In this document: positions 10,239-28,858 of the stretch, piece after piece
Position numbering within the stretch: position 1 is the stretch's first letter
How the letters are laid out: every line of letters starts with the position of its first letter
NCBI GenBank assembly: GCA_963711565.1
Contig: CAVQEQ010000004.1
Span: forward strand, 32,001 to 96,000
Direction: 5' to 3'
From: an uncultured delta proteobacterium
GTDB taxonomy: Bacteria > Desulfobacterota > Binatia > Binatales > Binataceae
DNA length: 64,000 bases
Program-made: the position numbers and the translations under genes
The notes under the pieces: generated by a model
Seen by the model: the letters and a program-made list of their open reading frames with translations, nothing else
Databases searched by the model: none
What the model was told of the DNA's origin: nothing

Positions 10239-10240
10239 AC

Positions 10241-10642: not shown

Positions 10643-10672
10643 TTGACTTCAAGTCAGATATCCGGCCAGAAT
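10643..10672 (+). promoter_or_regulatory. Candidate sigma-70 promoter with operator over -35 (leaderless transcript)
   Basis: TTGACT (10643-48), 18-bp spacer, CAGAAT (10667-72), ATG at 10680 with no RBS. Inverted repeat TGACTT-C-AAGTCA at 10644-56. Confidence 0.55.
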
Positions 10673-10679
10673 AAGAATT

Positions 10680-11057
10680 ATGGACGGCAGACTCGGCAAG
10701 AAAATCCGGGAGTTGCGACTCAAGAAAGGGGCCACCCAAGAAGAGCTCGCAGCCGAGGTAGGTGTCGATGGCACCTACATCTCCAAAATAGAGAAAGACC
10801 GTTTGCCTTACTCGCCCTCAGCAGAAACCCTCAGGCTGATAGCCAAGGCTTTGGACTCTGATGCTCTAGACCTCTTCTCGCTCGCTCAACGAACACCGCC
10901 TGAGCTGCAGGGCTTTCTCACTACGCCCCACGCCACCGACCTTCTACGCCTCTTGGGCCGAAGTGACCTCAGCAAGAGAGACTGGAAGGCCGTCAAAGAA
11001 TTCGTGGAGGAGCGCGTAGCCGCCACTGAAGCAAAGGCGGTGAAGAACCGCAAATGA
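10680..11057 (+). CDS. XRE-family HTH regulator heading the Argonaute operon
   Basis: IRELRLKKGATQEELAAEVGVDGTYISKIEKD; ATGA overlap with the next gene. Confidence 0.9.
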   Translation: MDGRLGKKIRELRLKKGATQEELAAEVGVDGTYISKIEKDRLPYSPSAETLRLIAKALDSDALDLFSLAQRTPPELQGFLTTPHATDLLRLLGRSDLSKRDWKAVKEFVEERVAATEAKAVKNRK

Positions 11058-12016: not shown

Positions 12017-14304
12017 CTAACACTTTTCGCATCCCCTTGCTCGATACGCTGACGGTTCCGTATAGCTGGGTCCGCTTCGACGGCTTACAAGTGACTGACG
12101 TGGAGTATGACGAAAACGTATCGCTGCTCGCCACTATACTGGGCCGAAAACTCCAGGCGCCAGTCGCTCCTGTCTGGCGAGATGAACAACAGTTGCTGGC
12201 TGTCGCGAGCACCGGCGCTACTTTACCTGAGAAAGTCAACCTGCGCGGGGCAGTCACTAAGCTCTCTCCCGAGTCCGAGACTCGCACGCTTCGCCTTGCA
12301 GGCGGCACACTACTAGAGCAGCAAGTTGCAAAGAAATTTCTTAGATGGGAGCTTCGTAGCGCTTTCTACCACGACCGACGCTTTTGGGAACATTATGGTC
12401 GGCAGGCGGAGCGCGTCCCCATGGTCATCGATGGCTACAATGGCCCGGTCGGCCTGCACCGAACGCTCGCATACGGCTTCGTTCCAACTGATGACGGTCG
12501 CTTTGAGCTATCCGTAGAGGTCGGCCTTTGCTATTTGGCTCGACGTTCGCTTCATGAAACGAGTGATCTTCAGCGTTTGAATGAACTCAAGTTTGAACGA
12601 TGCCTCTACAAACTCGGCTTGGACTGGTACGTGGTCGATGTTTCTGGACCGACGCGGAGAATTGTTGAAATTGAATTCTTCGATGACGACGTTAACAAGG
12701 TTGTGGGGCTGAGATCATTCATTCAGCATCGTTGGAGCGGAAAGGGCATTCCGCAAGTGGATGCGCTATCAGATGGAGCGCCAGCTCTCTACTACAAGAA
12801 GCCACAAGGACAGAACCGTTGGGCTCCGGCTTCATTGCTCTATCCTGTGTATTCGACTGACAGTCCGGAGGGTGCCGAAGTGCACCGGCGTGCGATCTCA
12901 GCGCCGCATTTCAGACGCAAGAATATTGAACGCGCCGTTCAAACTGTTTTCGCTGGCAAAAAGATCTTTGGTCAGCCGATGCGCGTTGAGCCGATTATGC
13001 GACAGCTCCCCGAGATGACAGCTCCCCTGCCTCGACTAGCATTTGGAGGCGATACGGAGCTCACGCTCACTTACGACAACATTGCCGATGCCAGGTGGGA
13101 CGCACTCAGGGCTCCGGGCGTTGGACCGCATGTAAAGACTCCGTTTGACCCTCAGTACGCTGTAGTGCCATCTAGCATGCCTGCGCGCATGACGGCCGAC
13201 GCCCTCCTCAAGCTCGACTTCCAAGTCCAAAAGATCTATTCGACATCGTACAAACCTAAGATCCTACTCTACGACGATCGCTCGCCCAGGCTGTCAGATC
13301 AACTTCGCGAGATCACGAGCTGCTTAAAGGGTCTTTCCGGGTACGCACTCGTCGTGTTACCAAAAACCCCCAACCCCAAACTCTATACGCACTTGAAGCG
13401 TCGACTTACCGACCTGAACATCCAATCACAATTTGCCAAGGCTAGCGCAATCGGCAGTTTTTACCACTTTGACGGACGGGGAAGCTGGACAGTTCCCGAG
13501 GCCTTGCAAAGCCGATATGCATCCTACATGCGCCATCTCGCACTCGGCGTTCTCGCCGTGAACCGAAAATGGCTATGGCGCCTCGCGGACGGGACTCTCA
13601 GTCAGCAGGCCTACATCGGTATCAACGTCCTAAAAGGGACGGCCGTGTTCACATTCCTCTATGCGGACGGGAGCGATATATACTTTCAGATCGAGAAGTC
13701 CGGCCGACAAGAGAGGCTATCCAGAGATCTGGTCCGTAACCTTCTGTTGGATCGTGTTCCTAAAGATATTGAGCGCCTTGGACTCACTGAGCTCTCTTGC
13801 ATTGTAATTTATCGAGACGGGAAGCTTTGCACTTCCGAGCGCCTCGCGCTGAAGGACGTCGCGCAACAGCTAATCGCGAAACGGGCAGTGCACGAAGATT
13901 TTGCCTTTAAGGTGATCGAGGTTCACAAGAGCAGTGCGTATCATCCTCGCCTCTTCGCAGAGCAAAACGGGCGCACCTACAACCCCCGAATGGGTACCTA
14001 TCGAATAATCCGCGATGCGGAAGCAATCCTCTGCACAACGGGAGAGCCGCTTCTTAGGCAGGGAACTGCTGACCCCGTACATCTTGTGTCGGTGCTGGGC
14101 CAGCTAAACACCTTCGATGTCGTCGACTTTAATGCTCTCAGCCATCTGGGATTCACCTCGCCGGCCGCCTGCCATCGGCTTGCGTTTCCGCTTGCGCTTG
14201 CCGACCACATACTTCGCGAACGGCAGCCTGAGCGCGCCGAGGAGCAGCCCTGGGACGATGAGCTCGATACGGCTGCTGAACTGCACGGCGCGCAGAGCCG
14301 TTAG
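12001..14304 (+). CDS. Long prokaryotic Argonaute
   Basis: 767 aa. MID Y-K-Q-K (LYTHLK, QSQ, NRK). PIWI motifs YIGINV, IYRDGK, VIEVHKS, NPRMGTY, QGTADPV, FPLALADH. RBS AAGGAGG. Confidence 0.9.
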   Translation: MAVLLTNTFRIPLLDTLTVPYSWVRFDGLQVTDVEYDENVSLLATILGRKLQAPVAPVWRDEQQLLAVASTGATLPEKVNLRGAVTKLSPESETRTLRLAGGTLLEQQVAKKFLRWELRSAFYHDRRFWEHYGRQAERVPMVIDGYNGPVGLHRTLAYGFVPTDDGRFELSVEVGLCYLARRSLHETSDLQRLNELKFERCLYKLGLDWYVVDVSGPTRRIVEIEFFDDDVNKVVGLRSFIQHRWSGKGIPQVDALSDGAPALYYKKPQGQNRWAPASLLYPVYSTDSPEGAEVHRRAISAPHFRRKNIERAVQTVFAGKKIFGQPMRVEPIMRQLPEMTAPLPRLAFGGDTELTLTYDNIADARWDALRAPGVGPHVKTPFDPQYAVVPSSMPARMTADALLKLDFQVQKIYSTSYKPKILLYDDRSPRLSDQLREITSCLKGLSGYALVVLPKTPNPKLYTHLKRRLTDLNIQSQFAKASAIGSFYHFDGRGSWTVPEALQSRYASYMRHLALGVLAVNRKWLWRLADGTLSQQAYIGINVLKGTAVFTFLYADGSDIYFQIEKSGRQERLSRDLVRNLLLDRVPKDIERLGLTELSCIVIYRDGKLCTSERLALKDVAQQLIAKRAVHEDFAFKVIEVHKSSAYHPRLFAEQNGRTYNPRMGTYRIIRDAEAILCTTGEPLLRQGTADPVHLVSVLGQLNTFDVVDFNALSHLGFTSPAACHRLAFPLALADHILRERQPERAEEQPWDDELDTAAELHGAQSR

Positions 14305-14316
14305 GAGTATGCGAAT

Positions 14317-14718
14317 ATGAGTACTACAGCTCAAGTTTATTCGAACTTCAAGACCGTTACAGATCTGTTGACCAGATTGAACGGGGCGCTCATTACCGCC
14401 AAACGGGTGGTCCTGCGTTCCGCTCCCCCACCTGAGAAGGACGCGATCGCTGAAGCGACGAGTGTGCTGACTGAGTTTTTGTCTCAACAAAGTGCTGACG
14501 ACGCCAATCGCGGCATCAGCCAACGATCTCGCGTATTCTTCCAAGCGGGAAGCAGTCGGGGTTTTAGCCTGAACCTCGAGGAGTCCGCTGGATGCCTTGC
14601 ACGGCTGCAGAAGGGCTTAACCGCCCTGGAAGCGCGAGACTTGGAGTTTCTGGAAAGAGTTGCACGCCAACTTGATCAGTCGTCGGAAAATCTCTATCGA
14701 CAAATGGCCCGAGTGTGA
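14317..14718 (+). CDS. Small all-alpha hypothetical protein in the pAgo operon
   Basis: 133 aa, amphipathic helical pattern; AGGAG overlaps the pAgo stop; GTGA overlap with the next gene. Confidence 0.75.
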   Translation: MSTTAQVYSNFKTVTDLLTRLNGALITAKRVVLRSAPPPEKDAIAEATSVLTEFLSQQSADDANRGISQRSRVFFQAGSSRGFSLNLEESAGCLARLQKGLTALEARDLEFLERVARQLDQSSENLYRQMARV

Positions 14719-15797
14719 ACCGTCTCCTACGTGGCGCACTCGTCGCGTTGGTGCAGCGACTCTCTTGTATCGACGATCTGCTTCGCCCTGCGGAATCCAC
14801 CGCGCGCCTCAAGGACCGCTGCCAAGCGGTTCGTGTCATACTCGACAAGTATCGTCGCGACGTCGGACAGGCCTTGGCTTTGCTCGACAGTGCTCCGGCG
14901 CTGATCGACGACCTCACCCGTCAGTACAACGTCACTGCACGAAGTGTATATCTCGTTGAACAGTTCGTGGCGGGTCCGCTGTCGAGATTCTCTTCGCAAG
15001 ACGAAACAATTTCGAAGCTTTGCGAGCGTATCTGCCGCGAAATCAAAGTCACCGATATTCCGATTGTGCTTACCACAGGGAACCAGTATTTTGCCGCGCT
15101 CCCTGATCACGGTCTGATCTTTTCGCCTCCCACCGAATATCGGCTGCTCCTTAACCTACCGGACCTCTATCACGAGCTCGCTCATCACCTCGATGAGCGC
15201 GGTAGCCCTCTTGTAGGTTCTCGCTTTGAACAGGCAGTGGATACTTACGAACAGCAAATCGAAGATGAAATCCAGCGCCTTTCGCGGCCCATCAACGTTC
15301 AGGAATTTCGGGGATGGTTGTTGTGCTGGCGAAACTGGTCACACGAAGTGGCAGCTGACGCGTTCGCTACATTACTTGTAGGCCCCGCTTACGCCTGGGC
15401 GAACTTCCATCTTATGCTTCGAGTGCGGACGATCTTTGGTTACACCGAAACCCATCCGGCCGACGCAGCGCGAATGGAGTTCATACTGCGTATTCTGAAA
15501 TCAAATCCGCGGTTCTCAGGCGACTTTCAACTGATTCGGCAGAAATGGCAGGCTTACCTAGATCTACGCCACCCAGATCCACCACATTTATACAATTTGC
15601 TCCATCCGCCACAATTATTTACGGCCGTTTTAGACGATGTGCGCTCCGCACTGGAAGAACATCATTTCAAAGCAGACCCTCTCGCTTGCGGCACAATTAC
15701 ACACCTCTTGAACGAAGCTTGGCGAAGACTTTTGACGAATCCGCGTGATTACAATTCTTGGGAAATGGATACGGTTGCTTTGATTTCGAATTCATAG
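14715..15797 (+). CDS. Putative zincin/gluzincin metallopeptidase
   Basis: LYHELAHH, WSHEVAADAFATLLVGPAY (third-ligand E), THPADAAR; helical N-terminus; no transmembrane segment evident. Confidence 0.7.
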   Translation: MNRLLRGALVALVQRLSCIDDLLRPAESTARLKDRCQAVRVILDKYRRDVGQALALLDSAPALIDDLTRQYNVTARSVYLVEQFVAGPLSRFSSQDETISKLCERICREIKVTDIPIVLTTGNQYFAALPDHGLIFSPPTEYRLLLNLPDLYHELAHHLDERGSPLVGSRFEQAVDTYEQQIEDEIQRLSRPINVQEFRGWLLCWRNWSHEVAADAFATLLVGPAYAWANFHLMLRVRTIFGYTETHPADAARMEFILRILKSNPRFSGDFQLIRQKWQAYLDLRHPDPPHLYNLLHPPQLFTAVLDDVRSALEEHHFKADPLACGTITHLLNEAWRRLLTNPRDYNSWEMDTVALISNS

Positions 15798-15989
15798 ACT
15801 CAAGAAATCCCACTTACGCCGACGGGTGAAGAGGCGCGCCAACTACGATCTTTTCGCGGCTATCCCGAGCCTCACAATTTCTTTTGAGCCGACTGACTTG
15901 TACCTACCGCCTTGAGCTGCGGATCGACGCCGAGATTTGAAATCCCCCATCCTGTTTCTGCAATAGAACCATTCTGCCCTCGGCTTATG

Positions 15990-16300
15990 GGCACGCGGCA
16001 CTTCGCTGTGAGCCGCCCCGCGAGCGCTCCGTAAACTCCGCGTCGCGGCTCCACACCACATCCCAACCCCGCCTGCGATCTCCGCTTCGCCGCCGCTCTC
16101 ATTGGTGGCGTTCTCTGCGCTAGCACGCCGCGCCAGCCCTTCGGGCCGCTTTCGCTCTGACACGTCCTGCCGCCCGCTCCGCTCGCGCATCTGGAATCTG
16201 CGCTGGGACCTCCAGTTCGGGTTGAGAGGTCCCCGCGAAAAATGTTGCGCGGGAATGAAAACACGAAGCACGCCCTGCCGCAGGAGCGGAAGCGGGCGAA
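15990..16300 (+). promoter_or_regulatory. Structured non-coding region upstream of ssb/ardC (Frpo/ssi-like candidate)
   Basis: Hairpins GCCC-TTCG-GGC (~16136-46) and GGGACCTC...GAGGTCCC (16205-33), repeated CGCTnCG words; position ahead of leading-region genes. Confidence 0.45.
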
Positions 16301-16314
16301 AGGAGCAAACGACA

Positions 16315-16524
16315 ATGAGACGAAGGTTCAAATGCGATCCCAAGTGGATCACCGCCCGGTATCCGGCGAAATGCGCCGAGCCGAATTGCCAGACGGGAAT
16401 CAATTCCGGCGAGCGAGCGTTCTACTACCCCAGCGATAAGGCCCTTTACGGCACTCGTTGCGGTCACGGCGAAAAGGCCGAACGCGACTTTAACGCCCAC
16501 CGGATCGACGAAGACGGATTCTAA
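16315..16524 (+). CDS. Small Cys/His-rich hypothetical protein (69 aa)
   Basis: AAGGAG RBS then MRRRFKCDPKWITARYPAKCAEPNC...CGH; first gene of the ssb cassette. Confidence 0.65.
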   Translation: MRRRFKCDPKWITARYPAKCAEPNCQTGINSGERAFYYPSDKALYGTRCGHGEKAERDFNAHRIDEDGF

Positions 16525-16557
16525 ATCAAACAGCAAAAAGAATTGGAGGTAAGTGTC

Positions 16558-16941
16558 ATGTCTATCAACAAAGCAATCGTGGTCGGAAATCTGGGCCGTG
16601 ATCCCGAGGTTCGCGCACTGCCGTCAGGGCAGAACGTGGCGAATTTCTCGCTGGCGACGACCGAGCGTTTCACGGATCGGAGCGGTACCAAGCAGCAGCG
16701 TACCGAATGGCATCGCGTGGTCGCATTCGGACCGCTTGCGGATACGTGCCAACGGTTCTTGAGCAAAGGCCGTCAGGTTTATATCGAGGGTCGGCTCACT
16801 ACCCGCCAGTACGAAGCGAAGGACGGAAGCGGCACGCGCTATCGAACCGAAATCGTCGCCCTGCAAATGCGTTTGCTAGGGAATCGGAAGAACGGTAGCG
16901 CCGCGCCGAAAGCAGAGGCATCCGACGACATCCCGTTTTAG
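16558..16941 (+). CDS. ssb: Single-stranded DNA-binding protein
   Basis: INKAIVVGNLGRDPE, TEWHRVV, VYIEGRL, C-terminal DDIPF; RBS GGAGGT. Confidence 0.97.
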   Translation: MSINKAIVVGNLGRDPEVRALPSGQNVANFSLATTERFTDRSGTKQQRTEWHRVVAFGPLADTCQRFLSKGRQVYIEGRLTTRQYEAKDGSGTRYRTEIVALQMRLLGNRKNGSAAPKAEASDDIPF

Positions 16942-16956
16942 TTCCCACCACGCGAC

Positions 16957-16982
16957 GGGAGAGCCGCGAAAGCGGTTCTCCC
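16957..16982 (+). other. GC-rich hairpin with GAAA tetraloop between ssb and ardC
   Basis: GGGAGAGCCGC-GAAA-GCGGTTCTCCC. Confidence 0.6.
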
Positions 16983-17016
16983 TCAATTATTCAAATCACA
17001 ATCGGAGACTACGGAA

Positions 17017-17889
17017 ATGGACATCTACGCAATCGTGACCGACAAGATAATCAATCTACTTGAACAAGGCGTCGTGCCGTGGCGCAGGCCGTGGACCTCA
17101 GCCGGACTGCCGCGCAATCTTGTGAGCAAGAAGCCATATAGAGGAATCAATCATTTTCTACTTTCCGTATCGAAGTATGTTTCACCGTTTTGGCTGACAA
17201 TGCGCCAGGCTAACGAACTTGGCGGACACATCCGCAAAGGCGAGGAAAGCACGGTTGTCGTGTTCTGGAAGGTTGACGATACGAAACAAAGCACCAGAGA
17301 CCTCGACACCGAGGAGACCGACGGGAAGGCGCGACGACGGTTCTTGCTCAGATATTATCGCGTGTTCAACCTCGAACAATGCGAGCTTCCGCAAGCGGTA
17401 CTCGACAAGCTGCCGAAGATCGAGACGCACGAGCACGATCCGATCGAAGCGGCCGAACGGATCATCGCCGTAATGCCCAACCCGCCGGAGGTTCAGCACG
17501 CAGGATCAAAAGCGTTCTACAGCCCGATCACAGATCGAATCACTCTGCCGCCGCGCGAACTTTTCGCGAGCGCTGAAGAATATTACGCCACAGCGCTGCA
17601 CGAGACCGTCCACAGCACCGGCCATCAGAAGCGCCTTGCGCGAGAAGGGATTTGCGAAGTCGCTCCGTTCGGTTCCGCCGTCTACTCAAAAGAAGAATTG
17701 TGCGCGGAAATGGGAGCCGCCTATCTTTGCGCGGAAGTCGGCATTACAGCTGCAGTCATCGATAATCAGGCCGCGTACGTGGCCGGCTGGCTAAAGAAAC
17801 TCCGCGACGATCGCAAGCTCCTGATACACGCCGCCGCGCAAGCGCAGCACGCCGCGGATTATATCCTCCGGGCCCCGCATGCAGTCTGA
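17017..17889 (+). CDS. ardC: ArdC-family antirestriction protein
   Basis: VPWRRPW, YRGIN, VFNLEQ, ALHETVHSTGH, YSKEELCAE. Confidence 0.92.
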   Translation: MDIYAIVTDKIINLLEQGVVPWRRPWTSAGLPRNLVSKKPYRGINHFLLSVSKYVSPFWLTMRQANELGGHIRKGEESTVVVFWKVDDTKQSTRDLDTEETDGKARRRFLLRYYRVFNLEQCELPQAVLDKLPKIETHEHDPIEAAERIIAVMPNPPEVQHAGSKAFYSPITDRITLPPRELFASAEEYYATALHETVHSTGHQKRLAREGICEVAPFGSAVYSKEELCAEMGAAYLCAEVGITAAVIDNQAAYVAGWLKKLRDDRKLLIHAAAQAQHAADYILRAPHAV

Positions 17890-17893
17890 AAAT

Positions 17894-17926
17894 CGGCGGC
17901 GCCCGCGCGATGCGCGGGCGCCGCTG
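17894..17926 (+). terminator. Stem-loop after ardC
   Basis: CGGCGGCGCCCGCGC-GAT-GCGCGGGCGCCGCTG; weak U-tract. Confidence 0.55.
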
Positions 17927-18361
17927 TACTGTCAATCACTCTCCCAGTGCTGGCACCAGATTCTTGGATATTAGTCTCTCGATCTCCGTCTTCGGAATTC
18001 GAATCTAGCGGTGATCGCCCAGGCGAAGGACGCCTATCTGGCTCTTATCAATCATCTCGTACACTGCCGAATTGGAGACTGCGAGCATTGCCGGTTAATC
18101 TGCAACAAGCAACATGGGCGCACGCACGCAACGCACTCAGGCGCGTTCATAATTAACAGGCTCGCAGCGCCGGTCTCTCCAATCGACCAAAGATGATCGC
18201 TTACTCCGGCTTCCGGCGGCCAAACCAGTTTGCTGCAAAAATGACCGGGGATACGGCTGCCAGCGCTGACGACGCCGCTTACGGTGTCAGTGCAAGACCT
18301 GGCCGAGTTGCCCTACGGTCCCCGGTCACTTCGACGGTACCGGCGCTCGATCAGAACATCA

Positions 18362-19288
18362 CTAGTGGGAAGATGTCCGGCGCAACATGCGCCCACTATT
18401 GACAGGGGGTCCATCGTCCATTCTTGCCGGGCCCTTCGCGGTAATTTTTTGAAGTGTCTGGAGTTGTTGAGGCCACAGCAGTCCATGCAGCGACCAGGGT
18501 TTTCCAAGTGCCGCACGCTCTGTCTCGCCATCGACGAGCAGCTGGCCTCGCCGTACGTAGTCAAGGACTCGCTGGCGCCGCCATCCAAATATTGGAAAAT
18601 GTGAAGGCGGTTTCACATCACTGGTGAGTAGATAAACGTTCTTCTGCCATACGTCCCATGCAATCAGAGGAAACCGGAACATCAGCGGCTCAATCTTCGG
18701 AACTACCGAACCGGCTGGGGTAATCGCGTAACGCTGAAAAACTCCTTTGGCGTCGAAGAGGTTTCGTCGAGCGGTCGCGTAAGCCGGCAGGGATGCGCCG
18801 AGATCGCACAGGAACTCATGGCTCATCAGCAGATGAGGAGTCGCATCTATCCTTCCAATGCTTCGAATCCACTCGGCCGGACTGTCGGTCTGAGGACGAC
18901 GTACCAATCCCGGATCGTAGAGCCACGACTGCAGCCACGCGTCGAGAGCGTACCAAACGTCCAACGCTTCATCCGTAACTGCATGAATTCCGCGTGGCTT
19001 GCCTCTGCAGTAGTGTTCGCGAAGTATACGCCAATAGCTGAATGCTTTTTCACCGTACACATTCAAGGCGCAGAAGATTGTGAACTGCCGGCTTGATGGA
19101 AACTTGCCCGCAGGAAGGTAGCGCGTGAAATCGTTCAATGACCTCGCATACTCAAGCCGGCGTGAAGATTGTATATTGCCCCATTCCTGTTTTAATTCAG
19201 GTCTATCCTGCGGTTGGCCGTCCGACCGATCGAACTCAGCAAATGCGCGCTCAAGATCGTGAAGCAGCGCGAAAACTTGGGGTTTCAT
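18362..19288 (-). CDS. Hypothetical protein (308 aa)
   Basis: Long ORF in an otherwise unassigned interval; no motif recognised. Confidence 0.55.
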   Translation of the reverse strand: MKPQVFALLHDLERAFAEFDRSDGQPQDRPELKQEWGNIQSSRRLEYARSLNDFTRYLPAGKFPSSRQFTIFCALNVYGEKAFSYWRILREHYCRGKPRGIHAVTDEALDVWYALDAWLQSWLYDPGLVRRPQTDSPAEWIRSIGRIDATPHLLMSHEFLCDLGASLPAYATARRNLFDAKGVFQRYAITPAGSVVPKIEPLMFRFPLIAWDVWQKNVYLLTSDVKPPSHFPIFGWRRQRVLDYVRRGQLLVDGETERAALGKPWSLHGLLWPQQLQTLQKITAKGPARMDDGPPVNSGRMLRRTSSH

Positions 19289-19712
19289 TCCCTACTTCCC
19301 AGACCCAGGCGATGATAGCAGGAACCCCCGCGGACCGGTCATTCGAATCAACGAGCTTCCGTCGTGCCGGTGCTTCGTGCGTGGATTTCCTCGTCGGCCG
19401 CGCCATTACGCCGATCGTGCCCGCGTAAGTTTCGTTTATGAGTACAAAGGCGCAGCGTTCCAAGCTGGAAGAACTGGGCTACACCGACGATCAAATCGCC
19501 AAGCCCGCAGAAGCGCACGGCATCTTGAAGATCGGAACTAAGGCTTCAGCTTGAGCCCATTGCGCATGTGGATTTTTGTTCACAGACGGTTTAAGAATAT
19601 CGCCGATGGATTCCTCTACAACGAGGAGTGCATTCTGTACAGGATCGGCGCGCTTACCGCCTCTCCTTGCTCGGGTAGGTATACACTTTAATTGTGCACA
19701 GGGGAAAATGAA

Positions 19713-20720
19713 ATGCCACTAACTCCGATCTTTTATGTACCAATATTGAAAACCAAAGCGGGAGAGAAATGGGCTCTTTCTCATTTGGAATTCCCCGCCA
19801 AAGCGAGACTGCGACCTCTCATGGAACTCCACGGAAACAACGACAAATCGCTTACCGAACATCTCGACAGTTTGTGCGATGATCTAGCATCAGATTGGGG
19901 AACCGGGCGCTGGCTTTATTTGGACGGCATTTGGCTACATGGTGAGCACGGCTCTGCGGCTACTCTATCCGCGATCTTTGCAACTGCAGCGGAAAAAAGT
20001 CTAAAGGCGCTTCCGGTCGTGCGGACTACGTTCGGCGATCTCGCACTAGAAACTGTTCAAGACATTGTTACTGAAAATGACAACAATGGGTACCTGCTTC
20101 GCATAACGCCCGGCGATTTAGATCATACTGCGGCGATCAATGCGACGGTCGCGGCGATTGGCGTTCCACGAGATCGTATAGACCTATTGCTCGACTATCG
20201 CCATCATCCGATGAATCTAGTAACTGATGTCCCGAGAGTTCCCCATCTTAGCGATTGGCGCAGGTTTATAGCTGCTTCCGGCGTGTTTCCTAGGACCCAA
20301 ACCGGACTTCCGATCAATGTATGGACCCCTGTTCCTCGAATCGATTGGACATCCTGGCTATCACAGCGAAGTAGTCTCACGCGGAAGCCTATTTTCTCTG
20401 ATTATACGACGCGTTCGCCGGGAGCACCGGCGGAATTTGGAGTTCCTCGCGTCAACATCCGATACGCGACAAACGACACGTGGTCCTTCCACCAAGCGGG
20501 CAGATTTGCGGACGGCGCAGCACCGGAGATGCACGGCCTCTGCAATCAATTGGTGGTACGTCCGGAGTTTCGAGGAGCAACCTTCAGCGCAGGAGATGAA
20601 GCGTATGATCGGGTGCAAGACCCGACTGAAGGACCGGGCGGACCGACTCAGTGGGTTCAGTGGGCGGTGAGTCATCATATCGAATTTGCAGTTGAGCAGG
20701 CTGTTGCTGTCGGGCCTTAA
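19713..20720 (+). CDS. Beta-family protein (sce7725-like)
   Basis: YVPILKTKAGE start, FSDYT, NIRYAT, FSAGDE, C-terminal SHHIEF. Confidence 0.8.
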   Translation: MPLTPIFYVPILKTKAGEKWALSHLEFPAKARLRPLMELHGNNDKSLTEHLDSLCDDLASDWGTGRWLYLDGIWLHGEHGSAATLSAIFATAAEKSLKALPVVRTTFGDLALETVQDIVTENDNNGYLLRITPGDLDHTAAINATVAAIGVPRDRIDLLLDYRHHPMNLVTDVPRVPHLSDWRRFIAASGVFPRTQTGLPINVWTPVPRIDWTSWLSQRSSLTRKPIFSDYTTRSPGAPAEFGVPRVNIRYATNDTWSFHQAGRFADGAAPEMHGLCNQLVVRPEFRGATFSAGDEAYDRVQDPTEGPGGPTQWVQWAVSHHIEFAVEQAVAVGP

Positions 20721-21309
20721 GCGCGAGGCGCACCTCATTGCACAGCATCTTGAGAGGCAAGGTCTCGATTTGTTGCCATAGCTCGATCACGGGTGCTTGT
20801 TGAGGAACGTGAATGCCCGCCCGTGCCAGAACTCTACGGCATTCCTGCTTCCAAAGAACCCGAACAAGGACTTTAGGATCTGGCTGGCAATTTTTTCGCG
20901 GGGCTCGCTTCGAGGACAGCCGGACAGTCCCATTGTCGGCTCTTTCAGCAAGCATGATTCCCCAGCTTTTCGGAATTCGTTTCCTAGCTGGATTCAGATG
21001 CTTGCGAGTCACAACGAGCGTAATGAATTCAAAGAGGCTTTGATATTGATCAGTTTGCGTGCCAAGCCTGACTAGCGAATCATGCTCGCTCTTAATTTCG
21101 TATCCGCAGAGCTCGCCATTAATGTACGCAATATCGGCGCGCCCGCGCCCTCTTAATAGGGGCAACTCTTCCACGATAGCCGCCGTTGGGTCTTGCTCCT
21201 GCAAAAAGCGAATCAAGGCGGCGCGAATGTCTCCGTCGAACAATCCCACCGTGGAAGAATCTAGCCGCTGGCATGGTGCCGGTTCAAGCGATACAAAACA
21301 GGGTTTCAT
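20584..21309 (-). CDS. sce7726-family PD-(D/E)xK-like protein
   Basis: EEL...RADIA...GYEIKSEHDSLVRL..Q...Y...F, PKSWGI; convergent overlap with the beta gene. Confidence 0.8.
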   Translation of the reverse strand: MKPCFVSLEPAPCQRLDSSTVGLFDGDIRAALIRFLQEQDPTAAIVEELPLLRGRGRADIAYINGELCGYEIKSEHDSLVRLGTQTDQYQSLFEFITLVVTRKHLNPARKRIPKSWGIMLAERADNGTVRLSSKRAPRKNCQPDPKVLVRVLWKQECRRVLARAGIHVPQQAPVIELWQQIETLPLKMLCNEVRLALKARQQQPAQLQIRYDDSPPTEPTESVRPVLQSGLAPDHTLHLLR

Positions 21310-21360
21310 TCAAAAAACTACCACTACCCAATCACAAGACGACGGCAAGAGCGCCCGTGT

Positions 21361-21921
21361 TCAGTTCAATATTGTGAAAAAGCGTCGGCGATCATCAAGT
21401 GGTAACCAGAGGGCGGCGGTCAGATTCGCCGACAGACCTTTGGAGGCGCAAGTGCCCTCAAGCTCTGCCCTCAACTCTCGATTGTTTGCGACAAACCAGA
21501 AGATGAACGTCAGCAGAGGCATAGGCCAATCCCCCGTCAGCTCACAGTATTTCCGGCTTGCCTCCCATATGAGCGCCTCGGTCCAGCGAGGACTAAGTTC
21601 GCCGGTAGCTTCCGGATCCTTGTCTGCGTGCTTCAGAAAATTTTCCGGCGTGTTGATGTACTTCCTGAATTCGCGAGCGGAATCCGCGTTGAGAAAGCAA
21701 TGGAGGTCTTTGAGCATCGGCTAGCCACCACGGTGTTCATTGATGTCTCGTATGACCGAATACGCGGCTGCGGCCAACGTATGGATTGACACTTCGTCGC
21801 CGTGCTCAAAGTAGAGCTTAGTGGCCGTCTCAAGCTGGCGTCGGGCCGCATCCAGTTTGCTTAGACGCAGGGGCTGGTGGATCTCGTTCGAGCTGACGGA
21901 GGCTCGTCGCATTCTGTTCAT
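21361..21921 (-). pseudogene. Hypothetical protein interrupted by an in-frame TAG
   Basis: ORFs 21721-21921 and 21361-21717 share a frame and are separated by TAG at 21721-23. Confidence 0.6.
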
Positions 21922-22005
21922 GCGGTGATCGTAAGCGTCGGCGGCGTCGCGCTCAACGCGCCGACGCAGATACTCGCGCGAAGCGGGTATGACCGGACGG
22001 CCGGG

Positions 22006-22242
22006 TCAACAGCCCGTCTCTTTTCTAACTGACGAGCTGGAGAAGTCCCGCGTGTTTCGCGACCAAAGTTCGACGCCGGCGTTCGTCCTAACCCCGATGG
22101 CTCGATAGCCGTCGAGCTTGACCTCGTACTGCCAGGCCGGACCTTCCGGCAATTTCTCGACCGCGAGGCAAAGCATCGGCTCGATGAATCCGGCCTTCGT
22201 CGGGGCAGTCCTCTCGGGCCTCTTCTCCTTTTCGGTTGCCAC
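22006..22242 (-). pseudogene. N-terminal remnant of ATP-dependent DNA ligase (LigD ligase domain-like)
   Basis: FIEPML...WQYEVKLDGYR...LWSRN, then truncated. Confidence 0.8.
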
Positions 22243-22617
22243 TGGATTGGAAGCATATTACCTCAGATCTCGAACCCCACAGAGCAGGTGATAAGGCAAG
22301 GAAGCAGATGCTCGCCGTTTTCTCAGAAGCGACCGACGAGCCGTCGATCTTCGGCATTCAGGTTGGACGGATTTACTTCAGTGCGCGGTGTCTGTTCCGC
22401 GCCTGCCCAAATCTCGCAGCGACTTGCGTCCGGCCGATAGACCGCATCGGCAGGCCCGCTCATCGCGATCTCCTGGTTTGCGACGCACATTCCGAGCGGC
22501 TCATAGCACGGGCCAGGTCCAAACAGCTCGACGTTTCGATTCGGGACTAAAGACCACTTGCAATTTAGGGGCGTGCAAGCGCATCTCTATGCCGCCTCGA
22601 GAACACCGGTCTTGCTG

Positions 22618-22854
22618 CTAGGAATTCAACAGCCGCTCAAGTCGTTCTACGCGAACATGCGGTGGCAGCAGGATTCTATTCTCAAGCAGGCACCTTTCGG
22701 CATGGCCTCCGTACTCGATTCTGTAACGCCGCCATCCGCGGAGCTCGCTGGGGAGAGCATCGGGGTTCATGATGAGTTCTTCGGTCACGTCAACGTAAAG
22801 TCGGTTCTTAGGTTCTTTCCGCAGAGAGCTGGCTTTCCGCTTTGCCTTTTTCAT
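22618..22854 (-). CDS. Small hypothetical protein
   Basis: 78-aa ORF starting MKKAKRK; no motif. Confidence 0.4.
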   Translation of the reverse strand: MKKAKRKASSLRKEPKNRLYVDVTEELIMNPDALPSELRGWRRYRIEYGGHAERCLLENRILLPPHVRVERLERLLNS

Positions 22855-23015
22855 CTTGGGACCCCACTTCGCAACATCTCCGGAGAGTCGCCATTGTAGC
22901 ATCGCACTCCAGTCCTGTGGGCTACTCAGCGGCGCGAGGCTTTCAGCCGGCTCTGGATCAGGTTACTTTGGAATCGGCAAATGAGCGCGAACACAAATCA
23001 GAACGGAGATGAATC

Positions 23016-23387
23016 GTGAAGAGCGTGCGCAGGCCACGTGCAATCATCCTGGACACGACTGATAGAAACGGATGTTTCGATCCCGAGAAGGTAGCGGACC
23101 TGCTCGATTGGACCCCGGACGAAGTGCGCCGATATCTCGACCAACAGCCGTCAAGCATCCCGAAGAGTGTCACAGTCTCGGCGACCCACGTGAGGCTGCA
23201 TTCTCTCGCTACGCTCATTCAGGAGGTCTTCGAACTCATGCACGAGGATATCTACGAGATGCGCGCATGGTTCCAAGCTCCGATCAAAGCGCTGGACGGC
23301 GGGTCGCCTCGGGACATGATTCTCGCTGGCGAGTTAGAGCGAGTCTCCGCTTTGGTTGACGAGACTGCTAGCGGGTTCGCCTTCTAG
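23016..23387 (+). CDS. Xre/MbcA/ParS-type antitoxin domain protein (orphan)
   Basis: HTH-like N-terminus and C-terminal WFQAPIKALDGGSPRDMI. Confidence 0.7.
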   Translation: MKSVRRPRAIILDTTDRNGCFDPEKVADLLDWTPDEVRRYLDQQPSSIPKSVTVSATHVRLHSLATLIQEVFELMHEDIYEMRAWFQAPIKALDGGSPRDMILAGELERVSALVDETASGFAF

Positions 23388-23550: not shown

Positions 23551-23763
23551 TCAAGATTTCTGAAAGAAATCCGCGACCTGCACATCGAGAGCTCGGGCGA
23601 GTTTCACGATTGTGGTCAGCGAGGGGCTACGTTTACCGCGCAGAATCTGCGACAAGTGCCCCTTGGAGAAATCTGTTTCAAGATAGAAGCGGTCGAGCGA
23701 GCCGTACTTCTGGATGACGATCTCGCGCAGCCTTCGGCGGAATAGAGCCTCCTCGTTTGCCAC
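23551..23763 (-). CDS. XRE-family HTH protein
   Basis: SKGHLSQILRGKRSPSLTTIVKLARALDV. Confidence 0.8.
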   Translation of the reverse strand: MANEEALFRRRLREIVIQKYGSLDRFYLETDFSKGHLSQILRGKRSPSLTTIVKLARALDVQVADFFQKS

Positions 23764-23877
23764 ACCGCGCGTGTAGCAAAAGAGGACTGGCCCAGCGTTT
23801 GCAATTGCAAACGCTGGATACTGTCAGAGATGAGTGAAACGATCAATGGCCGCGCGACGCGAGGCGAAGTCGCTTCT

Positions 23878-24858
23878 TCACGAGCTACCGTTGCGGCCGT
23901 TACGATAAGGGTGTCCGTTGAGATGTCCATTCGTTTCGTGCACTTCGTAGCGTTGAAGCCGATTGTAGAGGTTCCGTCGGCTCATTCCGAGAAGACTGGA
24001 CGCGCGAGCCTTATTTCCTCCGGCGAAGGCCAAGGTCCGGAAAATCAACTCGCGTTCGACCTCGCACATAGCCGAGCCAACGCGGACCATGAAGTGCGCT
24101 TCTGCGCCGTGAGAAGGAACGGACTCCATCGGCAGATCTCCAGCCGAAAGCATTGGAGAGGGGCACCTTATCACCGCGCGTTGGACGACATTGCGCAACT
24201 CTCGAACGTTTCCCGGCCACACGTGAGCTCGGAGGGCATCCAGGCAGTCTTGGCTCATACCTTGAATTTTCTTGTTGTGTTCCCGGTTGAATTCCTGGAT
24301 GAAGTGCTCGACGAGCAAAGGCAAATCCTCAAGACGGTCTCGCAGCGGAGGCAGCTCGACGGTGTAAACGTTGAGACGGTAGTAGAGGTCCTCGCGCAAT
24401 CGCCCCTCGCGGATCGCTTGACGAAGCGAACGATTGGATGCGGCGAAGACGCGCACGTCGATCGGCAGCTCTTTGCTTGCGCCGAGGCGGAGAACTCTCT
24501 TCTCTTCGAGAACACGAAGCAGTTTGGCCTGCATCTCCGGCCGCATCTCGGTGATCTCGTCGAGCAGAAGGCTGCCGCCGTTCGCCCGCTCGAAGCATCC
24601 CTCGCGGCGGCGATCCGCTCCCGTAAAGGCCCCGCGTTCGTGGCCGAACAGTTCGCTTTCGATCAGGCTTTCAGGGATCGCCGCGCAATTGATTGCCACG
24701 TACGGTCGGTTTTGGCGCTGCGACTTGTCATGGATCGCTCGTGCGGCCCGCTCTTTTCCCGTACCGCTCTCGCCAGTAATGATCACCGGCGCGCTCGTAA
24801 GAGCGGCTTCTTCAATCAGGCGTATGGCCCGGCGTATCGCTAGCGACTGACCAACCAA
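23878..24858 (-). CDS. Sigma-54-dependent enhancer-binding protein lacking an N-terminal regulatory domain
   Basis: GESGTGKE, ESELFGHERGAFTGA, LLDEI, WPGNVREL, Fis-type HTH. The ORF begins at the AAA+ domain. Confidence 0.92.
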   Translation of the reverse strand: MVGQSLAIRRAIRLIEEAALTSAPVIITGESGTGKERAARAIHDKSQRQNRPYVAINCAAIPESLIESELFGHERGAFTGADRRREGCFERANGGSLLLDEITEMRPEMQAKLLRVLEEKRVLRLGASKELPIDVRVFAASNRSLRQAIREGRLREDLYYRLNVYTVELPPLRDRLEDLPLLVEHFIQEFNREHNKKIQGMSQDCLDALRAHVWPGNVRELRNVVQRAVIRCPSPMLSAGDLPMESVPSHGAEAHFMVRVGSAMCEVERELIFRTLAFAGGNKARASSLLGMSRRNLYNRLQRYEVHETNGHLNGHPYRNGRNGSS

Positions 24859-25143
24859 TTTTCGCTCGCGAGATCAAAATCACAACCCCACCCCCGCCGG
24901 CACGTTCGCAGAAAGTAATCAGGCTGTGGATAACTTGTCAACAGGTTAATTTTGGTTACATTCTGCTGTTAACAGAACGTTAATGGTAACCTTACCTACT
25001 CTTGGCGACGGCTTCCTTTCCCGCCCTAACTCGGACATCAGGGACCGATATCGTAAAAGCATTATGTTTCCTTTTGATCGCTCAACCTCTCGACCCCTGC
25101 CACTGGCGAGCAATCTAGACTAGCTCCGCAAACGATGGCTCTC

Positions 25144-25230
25144 TGTGCAAAGTTTGCACATTGAAGGGCGAGCAAGACGAATTCCGAAATCGCCACGGAC
25201 ACTTACGATTGTGTGTGCAAAGATTGCACA
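25144..25230. promoter_or_regulatory. Two palindromic candidate upstream activator sequences
   Basis: TGTGCAAAGTTTGCACA (25144-60) and TGTGCAAAGATTGCACA (25214-30), 70 bp apart. Confidence 0.65.
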
Positions 25231-25332
25231 TGCACACTTTCTCTTCCGCCGAATGATCGCCAAATCCCTCTGTGGTCGGCGTGTCCACAACCGGATCGCG
25301 CCTTGTCGGTCGGCGTTCACGTGAACAGAGGA

Positions 25333-25349
25333 ACGGCACCGCCGTTGCT
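25333..25349 (+). promoter_or_regulatory. Candidate sigma-54 (-24/-12) promoter
   Basis: ACGGCACCGCCGTTGCT = GG-N10-GC, about 100 bp downstream of the palindromes and upstream of the xis-like gene. Confidence 0.65.
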
Positions 25350-25407
25350 CAATGAGTCTTCGGATGAGTGTGGGGTTGCGGGGATCTTTCGCTGCCGGGG
25401 GTCTTCT

Positions 25408-25812
25408 ATGTCGTACCAACCGCCGCACCAAATCACTTCGCGGGCAACATTGTCGTCCGCGACTATCGAGGAACTCCTCACAGATCCATCGCGTACAAGA
25501 GGGTTGGTCCTCGAATCGGTGCCCGAACTTCTAACGCAAGTTGCGTCGCGTGTAGCGTCGCTGAAAACTCTCGAGGGCGCGCTGCTCGCCCTGATGCTAA
25601 GTCAGCGGGTCGCGAACGGCGGCGCCAGGAACGTCGGCAGTGCGCTTCTGGGTGCGGCGGAACTCGCGAAACTTCTGGGCGTTCCAGAATCGTGGGTCAG
25701 AGAACAGGCGCGCCTCGGCAACCTGCCGTCCTTCAAACTCGGGCACTACGTTCGCTTCAGAGTCGAAGAAGTCGAGCGCTTTCTCGCCCAACGCGCCAGC
25801 CAAGCCGCTTGA
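25408..25812 (+). CDS. Excisionase-like HTH protein
   Basis: LLGAAELAKLLGVPESWVREQARLGNLPSFKLGHYVRF; start uncertain. Confidence 0.8.
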   Translation: MSYQPPHQITSRATLSSATIEELLTDPSRTRGLVLESVPELLTQVASRVASLKTLEGALLALMLSQRVANGGARNVGSALLGAAELAKLLGVPESWVREQARLGNLPSFKLGHYVRFRVEEVERFLAQRASQAA

Positions 25813-25847
25813 CTTTCTAGATCATCGACTATACGATACGTATAGTC
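25809..25847 (+). promoter_or_regulatory. Sigma-70 promoter with operator over -10; leaderless XRE-int transcript
   Basis: TTGACT-17bp-TACGAT; perfect inverted repeat GACTATACG-ATA-CGTATAGTC (25827-47) ending at the ATG. Confidence 0.7.
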
Positions 25848-26039
25848 ATGACTGGGCGAGAACTCCATTCCATCAGACAGAAGTTGGCGCTTACGCAAGC
25901 TGCACTTGCGGAAGCAGTCGGTGTAACTTCGAATACCGTGGCGCGCTGGGAGCGCGGCGAGATGGCAATCTCCGAGCCGGCCGCTAGACTGTTGGAGAAG
26001 CTCGCCGAGGAACGTAAAATCGCTAGGCGAGGGAATTAA
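25848..26039 (+). CDS. Small XRE HTH protein
   Basis: LTQAALAEAVGVTSNTVARWERGE. Confidence 0.88.
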   Translation: MTGRELHSIRQKLALTQAALAEAVGVTSNTVARWERGEMAISEPAARLLEKLAEERKIARRGN

Positions 26040-26040
26040 G

Positions 26041-27282
26041 ATGGGCGGGAATATTCAAAAGACGGGTGGACGTTGGCGAATCGACTATCGTGACGGCCAG
26101 GGCAGACGGCATCGCGCGACCTTCGACACGAAGAAGGAAGCCGACACCGCGCTGACGGACATCAAATCGCGAATCGGGAAGGGCGAGTATGTGGCTTCGA
26201 AGCTTCTGCCACATTTTCGCGAACTCGGGGAAGACTGGTTCCGATCGAAGGGCGATCGTCGGCCAGGAACGGTCGGCAACTGGCGCGCTCAGATCGATCT
26301 GCACCTGAATCCCAAATTGGGAGATCTTCGCCTCGATCGGATCAACGTCGCGCTGATCGAAAAGCTGCGCGACGAGCTCCGCGCAAAATTGAGCGCCAAA
26401 AGCGTGAACGCCGTGTTGACCACGGCTGCGGCAATCTTCAAGCTGGCGGTTCGGCGTAAACTTGCAACTGGAAACCCCGCCGCGGACGCCGAGCGTGCCT
26501 TCATGGGCGCAACTGAACTCAAGGATGAGGCGACGAAGGAGCAGCGGGGAGACGGCGTTCAGCCGCTCAGACCAGAGGAAGTTTTGGATCCCAACGAGAT
26601 CCGCAAGGTGCTGGAAAAAGCTGAGCCCGGATATTACCGGACGCTTTTCCTGACCGCGTATTTGACGGGCATGAGAAGCGGCGAACTGTTTGCGCTGCGA
26701 TGGTCGGACATCGAGCTTAAAGGAATCGATGCGGAGACCGGCAAGGAATCCTCACGCGGACGAATTTTGGTTCGCCGCTCGCTCTCGTGGGCTCGCGTGA
26801 AGAAGGATGACGGTCCGGTCCGTCCTCGCTTTTTTCCGCCCAAAACGAAGGCGGGCGTTCGCACGTTGCCGATTCCGATGGAACTCGCAGGAGCGCTCCG
26901 GCGCTGGAAGCTCAAATGTCCGCAGAGCGCGCACGACATGGTCTTCCCGATGCCAGACGGACAGCCGATGCATCGCAGCACGGCGCTGCGTTACGGCTTG
27001 TGGCCGGCGCTCAGCCGCGCCGGATTGCGGAGGGTCAACATGCACTCGCTCCGCCACTCGTTTGCGTCGGCGCTGATCATGGCGGGAGCACCCGTGACCG
27101 AGGTTCAGAGCCTGCTTGGACACTCCAGTCCGGCAGTCACGCTGAAGGTCTATTCGCATTGGTTCAAGAACGTCGAGACCGATTCGGTGGACAGGCTGGC
27201 GAAGAGTCTGACGACAGGCTCCAAAAATCTTGGACACTTTTTGGACACTTTGGAGGTTGCCCCGAAGGCAGATAGCGCATAA
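26041..27282 (+). CDS. Tyrosine integrase
   Basis: Arm-binding N-terminus; catalytic R (GMRSGE), K (PKTK), HSLRH, LGH, Y (VYSH). Confidence 0.95.
   Translation: MGGNIQKTGGRWRIDYRDGQGRRHRATFDTKKEADTALTDIKSRIGKGEYVASKLLPHFRELGEDWFRSKGDRRPGTVGNWRAQIDLHLNPKLGDLRLDRINVALIEKLRDELRAKLSAKSVNAVLTTAAAIFKLAVRRKLATGNPAADAERAFMGATELKDEATKEQRGDGVQPLRPEEVLDPNEIRKVLEKAEPGYYRTLFLTAYLTGMRSGELFALRWSDIELKGIDAETGKESSRGRILVRRSLSWARVKKDDGPVRPRFFPPKTKAGVRTLPIPMELAGALRRWKLKCPQSAHDMVFPMPDGQPMHRSTALRYGLWPALSRAGLRRVNMHSLRHSFASALIMAGAPVTEVQSLLGHSSPAVTLKVYSHWFKNVETDSVDRLAKSLTTGSKNLGHFLDTLEVAPKADSA
27230..27251 (+). repeat. Tandem 11-bp repeat, candidate integrase arm-type sites
   Basis: TTGGACACTTT x2 in the 3' end of int, near the tRNA. 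Confidence 0.55.
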
Positions 27283-27301
27283 GTACTTGATTTCATTGAG
27301 C

Positions 27302-27393
<92 letters not shown>

Positions 27394-27428: not shown

Positions 27429-28226
27429 TTACGAGCCCGCTTGAGTGCCGTTTTCGGGTCGGGTGGGCATAGGGTGGGCATGATTTGAGGTCAACGGCGT
27501 CGCTGCGGTCTCCAGCGAAGACATTTCTTCTGCAGAAAGATCGTCCGTCGGTATCCAGCGCCAGTAATGTTTCGACAACATTTGCAGCGTGCGATGATCC
27601 ATCTGCCGCTGAATCCAGTTGAGCGGCTTGTGCTGCTTCAGCGCTAGGGCCGCGAAGCTATGAGGGCACTGCCCGATTGGTCTGTGCGGAACTTCAGCTC
27701 GGGTGGGGATCCGGCGCCACACCACGTCGGTCGCCCAACGCACATTGGGCGCAGCGCCGCTCTCATTGGGGAAGACGTACTTGCTGCGTAGCTGAACTCT
27801 TTCCCGTTGCTTTGACAGCTCAGCGCGAACCCTTGGACCGTACTGGATCATGCGCCGGCTGCTCTTCGTCTTCGGCGTCGTGATGCCATATCGGACGCTG
27901 AGGCTGCGGTTGATCAGTGCCCGGTCACGATCGAGGTAGACCCTGTCCCAGGTCAGAGCGAGCGCTTCGCCGCGTCGAATCCCGGTAAAGAAATAGAGAG
28001 TGACAAGAGCGCGTTCCCAGCCCTCGGCCGCCGCGATGATCGCTTCTATCTGATCCGCGTTATACGGCATCACTTCGGCATCTTCCGGCTCGTCCGAGGG
28101 TTCGGAATCGTCGTCGTTCGCCTGGCCGGAATCCTTGAATGGCTTCATCCCGAGCAGGAGGTCTTCGTTGAGAAGCTTCCGAACGCGAGCGAACTCCAGG
28201 ATTTGATTCAGGACATCCCATGCCAT
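27429..28226 (-). pseudogene. Degenerate tyrosine integrase
   Basis: GIRRGE and PKTK retained, but QCPHSF lacks the catalytic Arg and MDH replaces the usual xGH; N-terminal domains missing. Confidence 0.8.
27461..27481 (+). repeat. Tandem 10-bp repeat, candidate arm-type sites of the second integrase
   Basis: GGGTGGGCAT-A-GGGTGGGCAT. Confidence 0.5.
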
Positions 28227-28269
28227 TTTGCGATTCCTCCGCGTATTCCGGCAGCGTACCTCGAAGTTT

Positions 28270-28472
28270 CACGCGGGGGTTGAACTGCCTCGTTCGGAAC
28301 GTCGGCCAATAGATCAAGTACCGTCCTTGCACGACGAAAAGGCCGTCCACTTTCCCGACCCCACCAGACACAATCCAGCCATACACGGTCTTTCGGTTGC
28401 GTCGAAGAATTTTTCAGGGACAGTCAGATATTCGCTCTCTGGCAGTCCAACTTCTGCTGCTTGCCTGCTCAT
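28270..28472 (-). pseudogene. Frameshifted excisionase-like HTH remnant
   Basis: MSRQ...EYLTVPE in one frame, continuing as LRRNRKTVYGWIVSG...GRYLI in another; 3' boundary approximate. Confidence 0.6.
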
Positions 28473-28541
28473 GATCGCCTGCCTGGTTGTTCGGCGTTAT
28501 CTTTTACCGGCGAACAGTTCTCTCGTGGCGGAGAGCCTTAG

Positions 28542-28558
28542 CGCAAGCGGGATGCCAG
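28542..28558 (-). promoter_or_regulatory. Candidate sigma-54 promoter for the second xis/int module
   Basis: Minus strand CTGGCATCCCGCTTGCG = TGGCA, GG-N10-GC, TTGC; 70 bp upstream of the xis remnant. Confidence 0.65.
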
Positions 28559-28858
28559 ACTAAACACCTGCCGAACTGTAGCGTTTGCGGCATCTTGCGC
28601 CTCCGAAAAGTGTGCTATGTGCAGAATTGGCACGCACACTTTGTGAACGGAATGTTTCAACGAAATGCAACCTTCAATCGTCGCTGCGGTTGCGAGCGTC
28701 AAACTTAACTGCCCTCATCCGATTTCCTCATTCCGTTCAGATACGCCCTCGTCGCATCCGGTTCTTGACTCGGCGCGGTGCAATGAAGTGTGGCCTTGAC
28801 GTGTAATCTAATTCAATTTAGATTTAGAAATAGTCGGCCGGAGGATTGAACAGCAGAG

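Follow-up and report, generated by a model that had tools for sequence, protein, structure and literature searches.

A sensor-less sigma-54 activator and matching promoter motifs beside the predicted excision gene of an integrative conjugative element in Binataceae

The stretch of DNA considered here, the window, spans 64,000 nucleotides from an uncultured delta proteobacterium of the family Binataceae (genome G000, contig C4:32001-96000). It carries the right end of an integrative conjugative element (ICE) of the Trb type, at least 66 kb long and inserted at a tRNA-Ser gene, and the control locus at this end is the subject of the present analysis. An open reading frame (ORF) on the minus strand (23878..24858, TTG start) encodes a 326-aa bacterial enhancer-binding protein (bEBP), a sigma-54 activator devoid of a sensor domain. 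Divergent from it, the plus strand carries genes for a 134-aa excisionase-like protein with a C-terminal HTH_17 domain (25408..25812), a 63-aa Xre helix-turn-helix (HTH) protein (25848..26039) and a 413-aa tyrosine integrase recognized by a profile match (26041..27282). Two palindromes and a -24/-12 promoter motif lie between the divergent genes.

The divergent intergenic region

A profile search of the window's proteins divides the activator into PF00158, which starts at residue 1, an AAA lid and HTH_8. Walker A, GAFTGA, Walker B, R-finger, sensor II and the Fis-type HTH (PF02954) are all intact, and the AlphaFold model (pLDDT 78.8) has no N-terminal domain (NTD) and places the C-terminal HTH helices at residues 264-310. 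An in-frame stop lies 5 codons 5' of the start, and a frameshifted receiver domain further 5' was ruled out, as no receiver remnant occurs in three frames. The original prediction for this DNA, of a bEBP without sensory domain divergent from a xis-like gene, is thereby borne out. Orthology with PspF was rejected: against family TIGR02974 the activator scores 265 bits, below the cut-off of 443.55, and its context is an ICE, not a psp operon.

The distal palindrome TGTGCAAAGTTTGCACA (25144..25160) and the proximal palindrome TGTGCAAAGATTGCACA (25214..25230) are spaced by 70 bp, lie 190 and 120 bp before the -24 element and are predicted upstream activating sequences (UAS). They were described at the outset as near-identical copies of TGTGCA-N5-TGCACA. 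Even with 1 mismatch allowed, the window has no third match (shuffled sequence averages 0.10 matches, and none of 100 shuffles contains 2), and no other exact occurrence of that pattern exists in the 4.84-Mb genome. A host regulon built on these palindromes was rejected, given the lack of further exact copies and of strong UAS elsewhere: among 201 host sigma-54-like motifs, strong UAS accompany only the two ICE xis promoters (29.6 and 22.1 bits; next 14.7). The predicted sigma-54 promoter ACGGCACCGCCGTTGCT (25333..25349, plus strand; GG at 25335-36, GC at 25347-48) lies 104 bp past the proximal palindrome, where about 100 bp had been estimated. Taken alone, GG-N10-GC is no commoner in the window than chance predicts (3 matches versus 4.1 expected), and it is the conservation that sets this copy apart, with GGCA kept in 23 and TTGC in 22 of 23 aligned homologous intergenic regions. 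Their flanks diverge, so that the palindromes and the -24/-12 letters alone stand out, and the UAS-to-promoter spacing is constant in this element type at about 120-124 and 190-196 bp. No exact match to the IHF consensus was found between the UAS and the xis promoter. Motif and UAS together have the sequence make-up of a sigma-54 promoter, and the host genome carries one rpoN.

It is likely, judging from these features, that the element-borne activator binds both palindromes to activate the -24/-12 promoter of the predicted excisionase, and probably also a second such promoter ahead of the transfer operon, described below. Because the ICE has an activator gene of its own, and matching promoter sequences precede the predicted xis and the transfer genes, the element likely switches both excision and mating via sigma-54. 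Host RpoN polymerase would transcribe xis, and the activator, as with PspF or NTD-deleted NtrC1-type proteins, would need no signal; the switch would therefore be the expression of the activator itself, driven by a sigma70 promoter that DnaA possibly damps, or else an inhibitor. Sigma-54 promoters are silent without an activator and therefore suit a costly all-or-none decision.

The excisionase-like protein is a predicted recombination directionality factor (RDF). It scores 40.7 bits with PF12728 and 31.5 with TIGR01764 (cut-off 28.8), as befits a small winged-HTH excisionase-family gene beside an integrase, and its gene always adjoins the integrase and is replaced together with it across integrase types. 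The circuit could also be real with this protein serving, instead of or besides an RDF, as a second-tier regulator of the AlpA/RdfS/Cox kind, in which case sigma-54 would control excision indirectly. RdfS and Cox do double as regulators (PMC5882170), and the ~75 N-terminal residues of the HTH_17 protein match no family. Yet the TIGR01764 score above cut-off, the swapping of the gene along with the integrase, and the short periodic repeats that separate core from arm sites in the left end of the element make such an arrangement rather unlikely. Outside the family, homologues of the xis-like protein amount to weak matches in 3 of the 306 genomes that represent the other families of the class. 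A prophage origin was also rejected: neither the bEBP C-terminus nor xis has relatives among viral contigs, and xis has none in phage records.

Metatranscriptome contigs from four soil assemblies of 2018, possibly of one campaign, contain a relative that differs by 7-9% over xis. Their left ends fall at 25375-25413, which is 15-53 nt inside the predicted start near 25360, and cover over 24984-25271 is almost nil, though two DNA runs cover that stretch. Since contigs cannot show transcript starts, this is a weak hint only.

Linkage and descent of the activator

Clade loci were gathered as the short-frame entries among the 150 listed out of 224 matches from 165 genomes of the family, with 7 loci added via other routes; two at contig ends (L133, L152) and two outside the clade (L146, L148) were dropped, leaving 50. 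A tyrosine integrase lies within 9 kb upstream in 47 of the 50 (41 of 44 if only loci reached from the bEBP side are counted), versus 0 of 69 control loci, the latter being 81 generic bEBP loci from a genome contig profile scan less 12 shorter than 9 kb. Synteny of bEBP, xis and int is thus widespread. The -24/-12 motif precedes the xis/int unit in 43 of the 47 integrase-linked loci, 42 of these with UAS. At least five integrase types are involved, mostly 21-32% identical, and their elements sit at tRNA-Arg, Leu, Ser, Glu, Gly and Thr; occupation of so many insertion sites implies past mobility. The orientation of int varies among loci, and kilobases of cargo sometimes separate the activator from the UAS. 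Searching in reverse from xis, the promoter and at least one UAS-like site were present in 19 of 19 fetched loci at 61% identity or more, and weak HTH-only matches had neither. A 70-aa Xre/Cro gene (HTH_3; 23551..23763, minus strand) downstream of the activator recurs in 9 of the 50 clade loci, 44 of which have enough downstream DNA, and is accessory rather than core.

The short form of the activator is itself common: among the top 120 homologues, within a search range of 179-571 aa only, 105 have at most 340 aa and 72 have 320-340 aa, and the short ones share a start column in the alignment. In a careful 40-row tree, rooted at the midpoint and built without near-duplicates or long-branch host rows, 20 element-borne short bEBPs form one clade (support 100/99) nested among receiver-bearing Binataceae bEBPs, and a quick tree of 90 rows agrees on the sensor-less clade. 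The ratio of nonsynonymous to synonymous substitution (dN/dS) is 0.12-0.22 in 20 of 20 pairs from the clade, and 36 of its 39 full-length members keep the GAFTGA-type motif and 33-38 the catalytic motifs. The phylogeny indicates that the short bEBP arose through loss of the receiver domain from a host NtrC-type regulator and is now a conserved monophyletic clade under purifying selection. The suspicion that homologues might reveal a mere truncated NtrC remnant therefore fails, the clade being integrase-linked as well, yet the protein is indeed derived by receiver loss. No match at E<=1e-100 was found in 306 genomes of the class's other families, with five candidates scored per genome; the clade appears to be found only in one family, taken to be Candidatus Binataceae because near homologues bear that name.

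Receiver-bearing host bEBPs, from which the sensor-less clade descends, are still 52-63% identical to it, and in some elements, including a remnant in the window, UAS and promoter persist beside a broken or missing activator. Both observations would fit real sigma-54 promoters fired by a host NtrC-type two-component regulator of the sister clade, with the short bEBP as modulator or competitor. This seems improbable, however: no strong UAS occurs at any other host sigma-54-like motif, purifying selection has kept the GAFTGA and ATPase motifs of the element's bEBP, and its recognition helix reads MSRRNLY versus VSAKTLY or ISLKTLY in the host paralogues. The inner UAS letters also follow the recognition-helix type, though linkage confounds this comparison, so that co-evolution of HTH and UAS is not claimed. 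Less credible still is that the bEBP is a decayed passenger whose motifs are due to chance or are bound by Xre or Xis. A lone GG-N10-GC is common and several activator copies are broken, but such decay squares poorly with the integrase linkage, the fixed UAS spacing, dN/dS of at most 0.22 and the recurrence of the same motif pair before non-orthologous xis genes; Xre, for its part, has its own operator and is absent from several element types that retain the UAS.

For the activator itself a sigma70-type promoter, TTGACA-18-TACTTT, is predicted at 24912..24941 (minus strand), and its spacer contains TTATCCACA (24925-24933), a perfect DnaA-type box. TTGAC occurs in the activator promoters of 43 of the 50 clade loci and perfect TTATCCACA in 26; in this element type the box lies in the spacer, in the tRNA-Thr type it covers the -10. 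Of the 17 perfect boxes genome-wide, the 5' end of dnaA has two and the two ICE activator promoters account for another two. Repression by DnaA is a guess, and the box may instead be a half-operator of another protein. An inhibitor is the other candidate; NTD-less bEBPs such as PspF are constitutive and restrained in this way (PMC10084136). No PspA/HrpV-like partner of the activator was identified, and an ABATE/CGNR zinc-finger gene or remnant, divergent from the activator in 22 of the 50 clade loci, does not occur at the window locus. Outside the ICE clade, two more host bEBPs have only ~50 codons before the AAA+ domain (G000 C4:628385-627351 and C4:676465-677490), the first with a perfect DnaA-type box ~450 bp upstream.

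Integration site, transfer genes and order of events

Directly 5' of the near-leaderless xre ATG lies a sigma70-like promoter, TTGACT-17-TACGAT, with the overlapping operator GACTATACG-ATA-CGTATAGTC (25809..25847, plus strand); CTATACG-N3-CGTATAG and a TTGAC/TTGAT hexamer are kept in 19 loci. Because xre-int has this conserved promoter and operator of its own, the integrase is not simply under sigma-54; with this refinement, the circuit originally proposed for the excisionase/integrase module is supported. Xre probably autorepresses a basal supply of integrase; integration would then need no activator, whereas excision would. No terminator-like site was found between xis and xre, and a sigma-54 transcript may therefore add to this supply.

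The integrase gene ends 20 bp before tRNA-Ser(GCT) (27302..27393, plus strand), the integration target. The 42-bp attachment (att) core (27300..27341, plus strand) is the 5' half of this tRNA, with an identical copy at the other end (G000 C1:7203-7162); two arm-type direct repeats TTGGACACTTT (27230-27251, plus strand) likewise recur at the left end, and a site at 27280-27292 (plus strand) matches the IHF consensus. End repeats measure 62 bp in the relative G022 and 49 bp in G042. The tRNA-Ser element has a duplicate of the 5' half of its target and sits on the upstream side of the intact gene; with related integrases at tRNA-Leu/Arg it is the 3' part that is duplicated. At the left end (G000 C1:7020-7165), short periodic repeats TCAGATCA/TCAGCTCA lie between the att core and the arm sites; they are candidate Xis sites and have similar counterparts in G022 and G042. 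The same tRNA-Ser is flanked by elements on both sides: across it lies a second, broken one (27429..28634, minus strand) with a UAS (28618-28634), a -24/-12 motif (28542-28557), a broken xis-like gene and a broken integrase of different type. Elements on the 3' side of tRNA-Ser also carry back-to-back UAS pairs about every 10 kb among small cargo genes (L173:8699, L173:18680, L174:14364; L156:12714), with no -24/-12 motif found beside them.

Inward from the att site on C1, the left part comprises short cargo, trbF, trbG, trbI, a small gene, traF, traD and a partial relaxase; after an assembly gap, C4 continues with trbB, C, D, E, a trbJ-like gene, a trbK-sized gene and trbL (C4:1-6 kb), followed by ~50 kb of cargo. 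These mating-pair genes, VirB4/TrbE among them, are those of a P-type Trb ICE. The relaxase runs off the contig end, and traG falls in the gap. In the relative G022 the module is complete, in an 81-kb element on a single contig. Its relaxase is RlxS-like and its coupling protein TraG-like; both score below NCBIfam cut-offs, and the Pfam match of the coupling protein is strong.

Both ICEs of the window genome, and also G022 and G042, have a second -24/-12 motif ~82 bp ahead of trbF. It was missed by a position weight matrix (PWM) trained on the xis promoter and found with a looser pattern, which is present at 44 of 74 trbF loci (drawn from 150 listed of 177 matches), 39 times at -79 to -84, against a background of 9 in 937 windows. 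All 20 members of the window element's trbF clade have it, as do lineages 47-57% identical; two trbF lineages lack it. The DNA upstream of the motif is unconserved, and at 73 of the 74 loci the best UAS score within the up to 700 bp of upstream DNA fetched is at most 6.4 bits. The exception, L221 (the same site as L143:12781-13043), is rearranged: xis and int are gone, and the trbF promoter directly adjoins what was the UAS and promoter of xis. Presence of the trbF motif is suggestively, not cleanly, correlated with the short bEBP: among 10 genomes checked, mostly with motif-less trbF lineages, 8 have long-frame bEBPs only, and the short one occurs in G022 and G138.

Lacking an enhancer of its own, the trbF promoter would be fired by the same activator. 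When the element is integrated, 69-79 kb separate it from the UAS; in the circle, summed across att, the distance is 2.4 kb in G042, 2.5 kb in G022, 2.8 kb in the sister ICE and 4.2 kb in the window ICE. NtrC enhancers still work over distances of 1 kb and longer, and with lower efficiency over 6 kb (PMC7408454). A tentative, rather doubtful proposal is that circularization gates the enhancer: it would bring the sole UAS pair near the trbF promoter, so that a constitutive activator orders excision before mating, a DnaA box ties the cascade to replication state, and the shared UAS core lets one element trigger co-resident islands. Excision would be ordered before mating by DNA geometry alone, because circularization puts the enhancer within 2.4-4.2 kb of the trbF promoter, a distance that NtrC enhancers are reported to span. 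Alternatives are activation by the bEBP from solution, a host bEBP, or Tn916-like read-through.

Several points weigh against sigma-54 control by the element's own activator. No attP junction was seen among the loose ends listed for 8 sequencing runs. By the pattern used, 4 of the 47 integrase-linked loci have no xis promoter; about a dozen loci have broken activators; and the clade loci are kin, their counts not independent. The PWMs for xis promoter and UAS were trained on 23 loci of this element type, and the pattern behind the trbF counts was written after four cases had been seen. G046, 86% complete, has a motif-bearing trbF, and the short bEBP was not found in it. Besides RDFs, the HTH_17 proteins include transcription regulators. 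Finally, removal of the NTD or receiver can also inactivate a bEBP (PMC10084136).

Known systems, sister element and cargo

PspF of E. coli and HrpR/HrpS of P. syringae likewise consist of AAA+ plus a Fis-type HTH only (PMC10084136). The present activator resembles them in its predicted signal-independent activity and its position divergent from a sigma-54 promoter with upstream sites; it differs in stemming from an independent receiver loss in a Binataceae NtrC-type gene, in residing on mobile elements and in its predicted targets, the mobility genes. Among ICEs, ICEMlSym R7A and ICEMcSym1271 are also tRNA-integrated, with P-type Trb and an RlxS-like relaxase (here a partial, below-cut-off match to NF041267), and turn on the RDF through an element-encoded activator (TraR > FseA > rdfS; PMC5812530, PMC5882170); theirs is FseA under quorum sensing, whereas here an AAA+ bEBP is predicted to act on a -24/-12 promoter. 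SetCD of SXT/R391 is similarly a single element-encoded activator for xis and transfer genes, but is FlhCD-like, under SetR/SOS control, and activates int too, which here has its own Xre-operator promoter (PMC5812530). In Tn916, circularization also sets the transfer operon downstream of xis-int; its tra genes are promoterless and depend on read-through, whereas trbF here has its own -24/-12 motif and circularization would deliver an enhancer (PMC5812530).

Characterized master switches of ICEs comprise repressor cleavage, FlhCD-like activators, and LuxR/FseA or RpoS-linked cascades (PMC5812530); in that review RpoN appears solely in a reference on NifA. No precedent for sigma-54 control of ICE or genomic island excision was found in the literature, judged by title and start of abstract, and no paper on Binatota integrative conjugative elements, in a search whose coverage mostly excluded subscription papers. 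The control module is real, conserved and family-wide on integrative elements; its parts are known, their arrangement is without a precedent found in print, and its function is read from sequence. It would represent a new design in which a host two-component activator was taken, its sensor dropped, and excision and conjugation placed behind sigma-54; the circularization-gated enhancer, if true, would be a new way of ordering steps in the cycle of a mobile element. Homologues of trbF occur in 84 of the 165 genomes of this soil family, and the window element is rich in defence genes.

A sister ICE at tRNA-Thr of the same genome (G000 C3:1568650 to end plus C2:1-45178; L161-L163, L001) has the same control parts. 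Its sensor-less bEBP is 57% identical, its integrase and xis-like gene differ, and it carries a HORMA/SMODS (CBASS-like) cluster. Four contig breaks stem from the tra region common to both ICEs.

Defence and anti-defence cargo of the window element occupies 1..23387 and continues left of the window. Dense defence genes (window 2891-6468 and G000 C4:11-33 kb) include a DUF499 ATPase, DUF7680, SNF2/PLD helicases, AIPR, an EH_Signature/OmpA cluster and AbiEi/AbiEii. An operon of Multi-ubiquitin, Prok-E2_E, JAB-ThiF(E1) and DUF6527 genes (8057-10594), with an Xre/IrrE-like peptidase pair upstream, is a candidate for ubiquitin-like conjugation defence. At 11054-14304, after an Xre HTH gene, a 320-aa PD-(D/E)XK nuclease and a 767-aa PIWI-domain protein probably constitute a long prokaryotic Argonaute system. 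Further on (16543-17889 and 19692-21309) are an SSB and ArdC anti-restriction pair, common to the sister ICE, and a Beta-protein gene with a convergent 241-aa partner. At 22006-23387 lie a fragment of an ATP-dependent ligase and a gene for an Xre/MbcA antitoxin; no intact toxin ORF was noticed next to the latter. Outside the ICE, the ORF list of the window contains, at 39793-47695, an Acyl-AMP-ligase-like ORF and, after it, a type I polyketide synthase-like ORF of 1981 aa.

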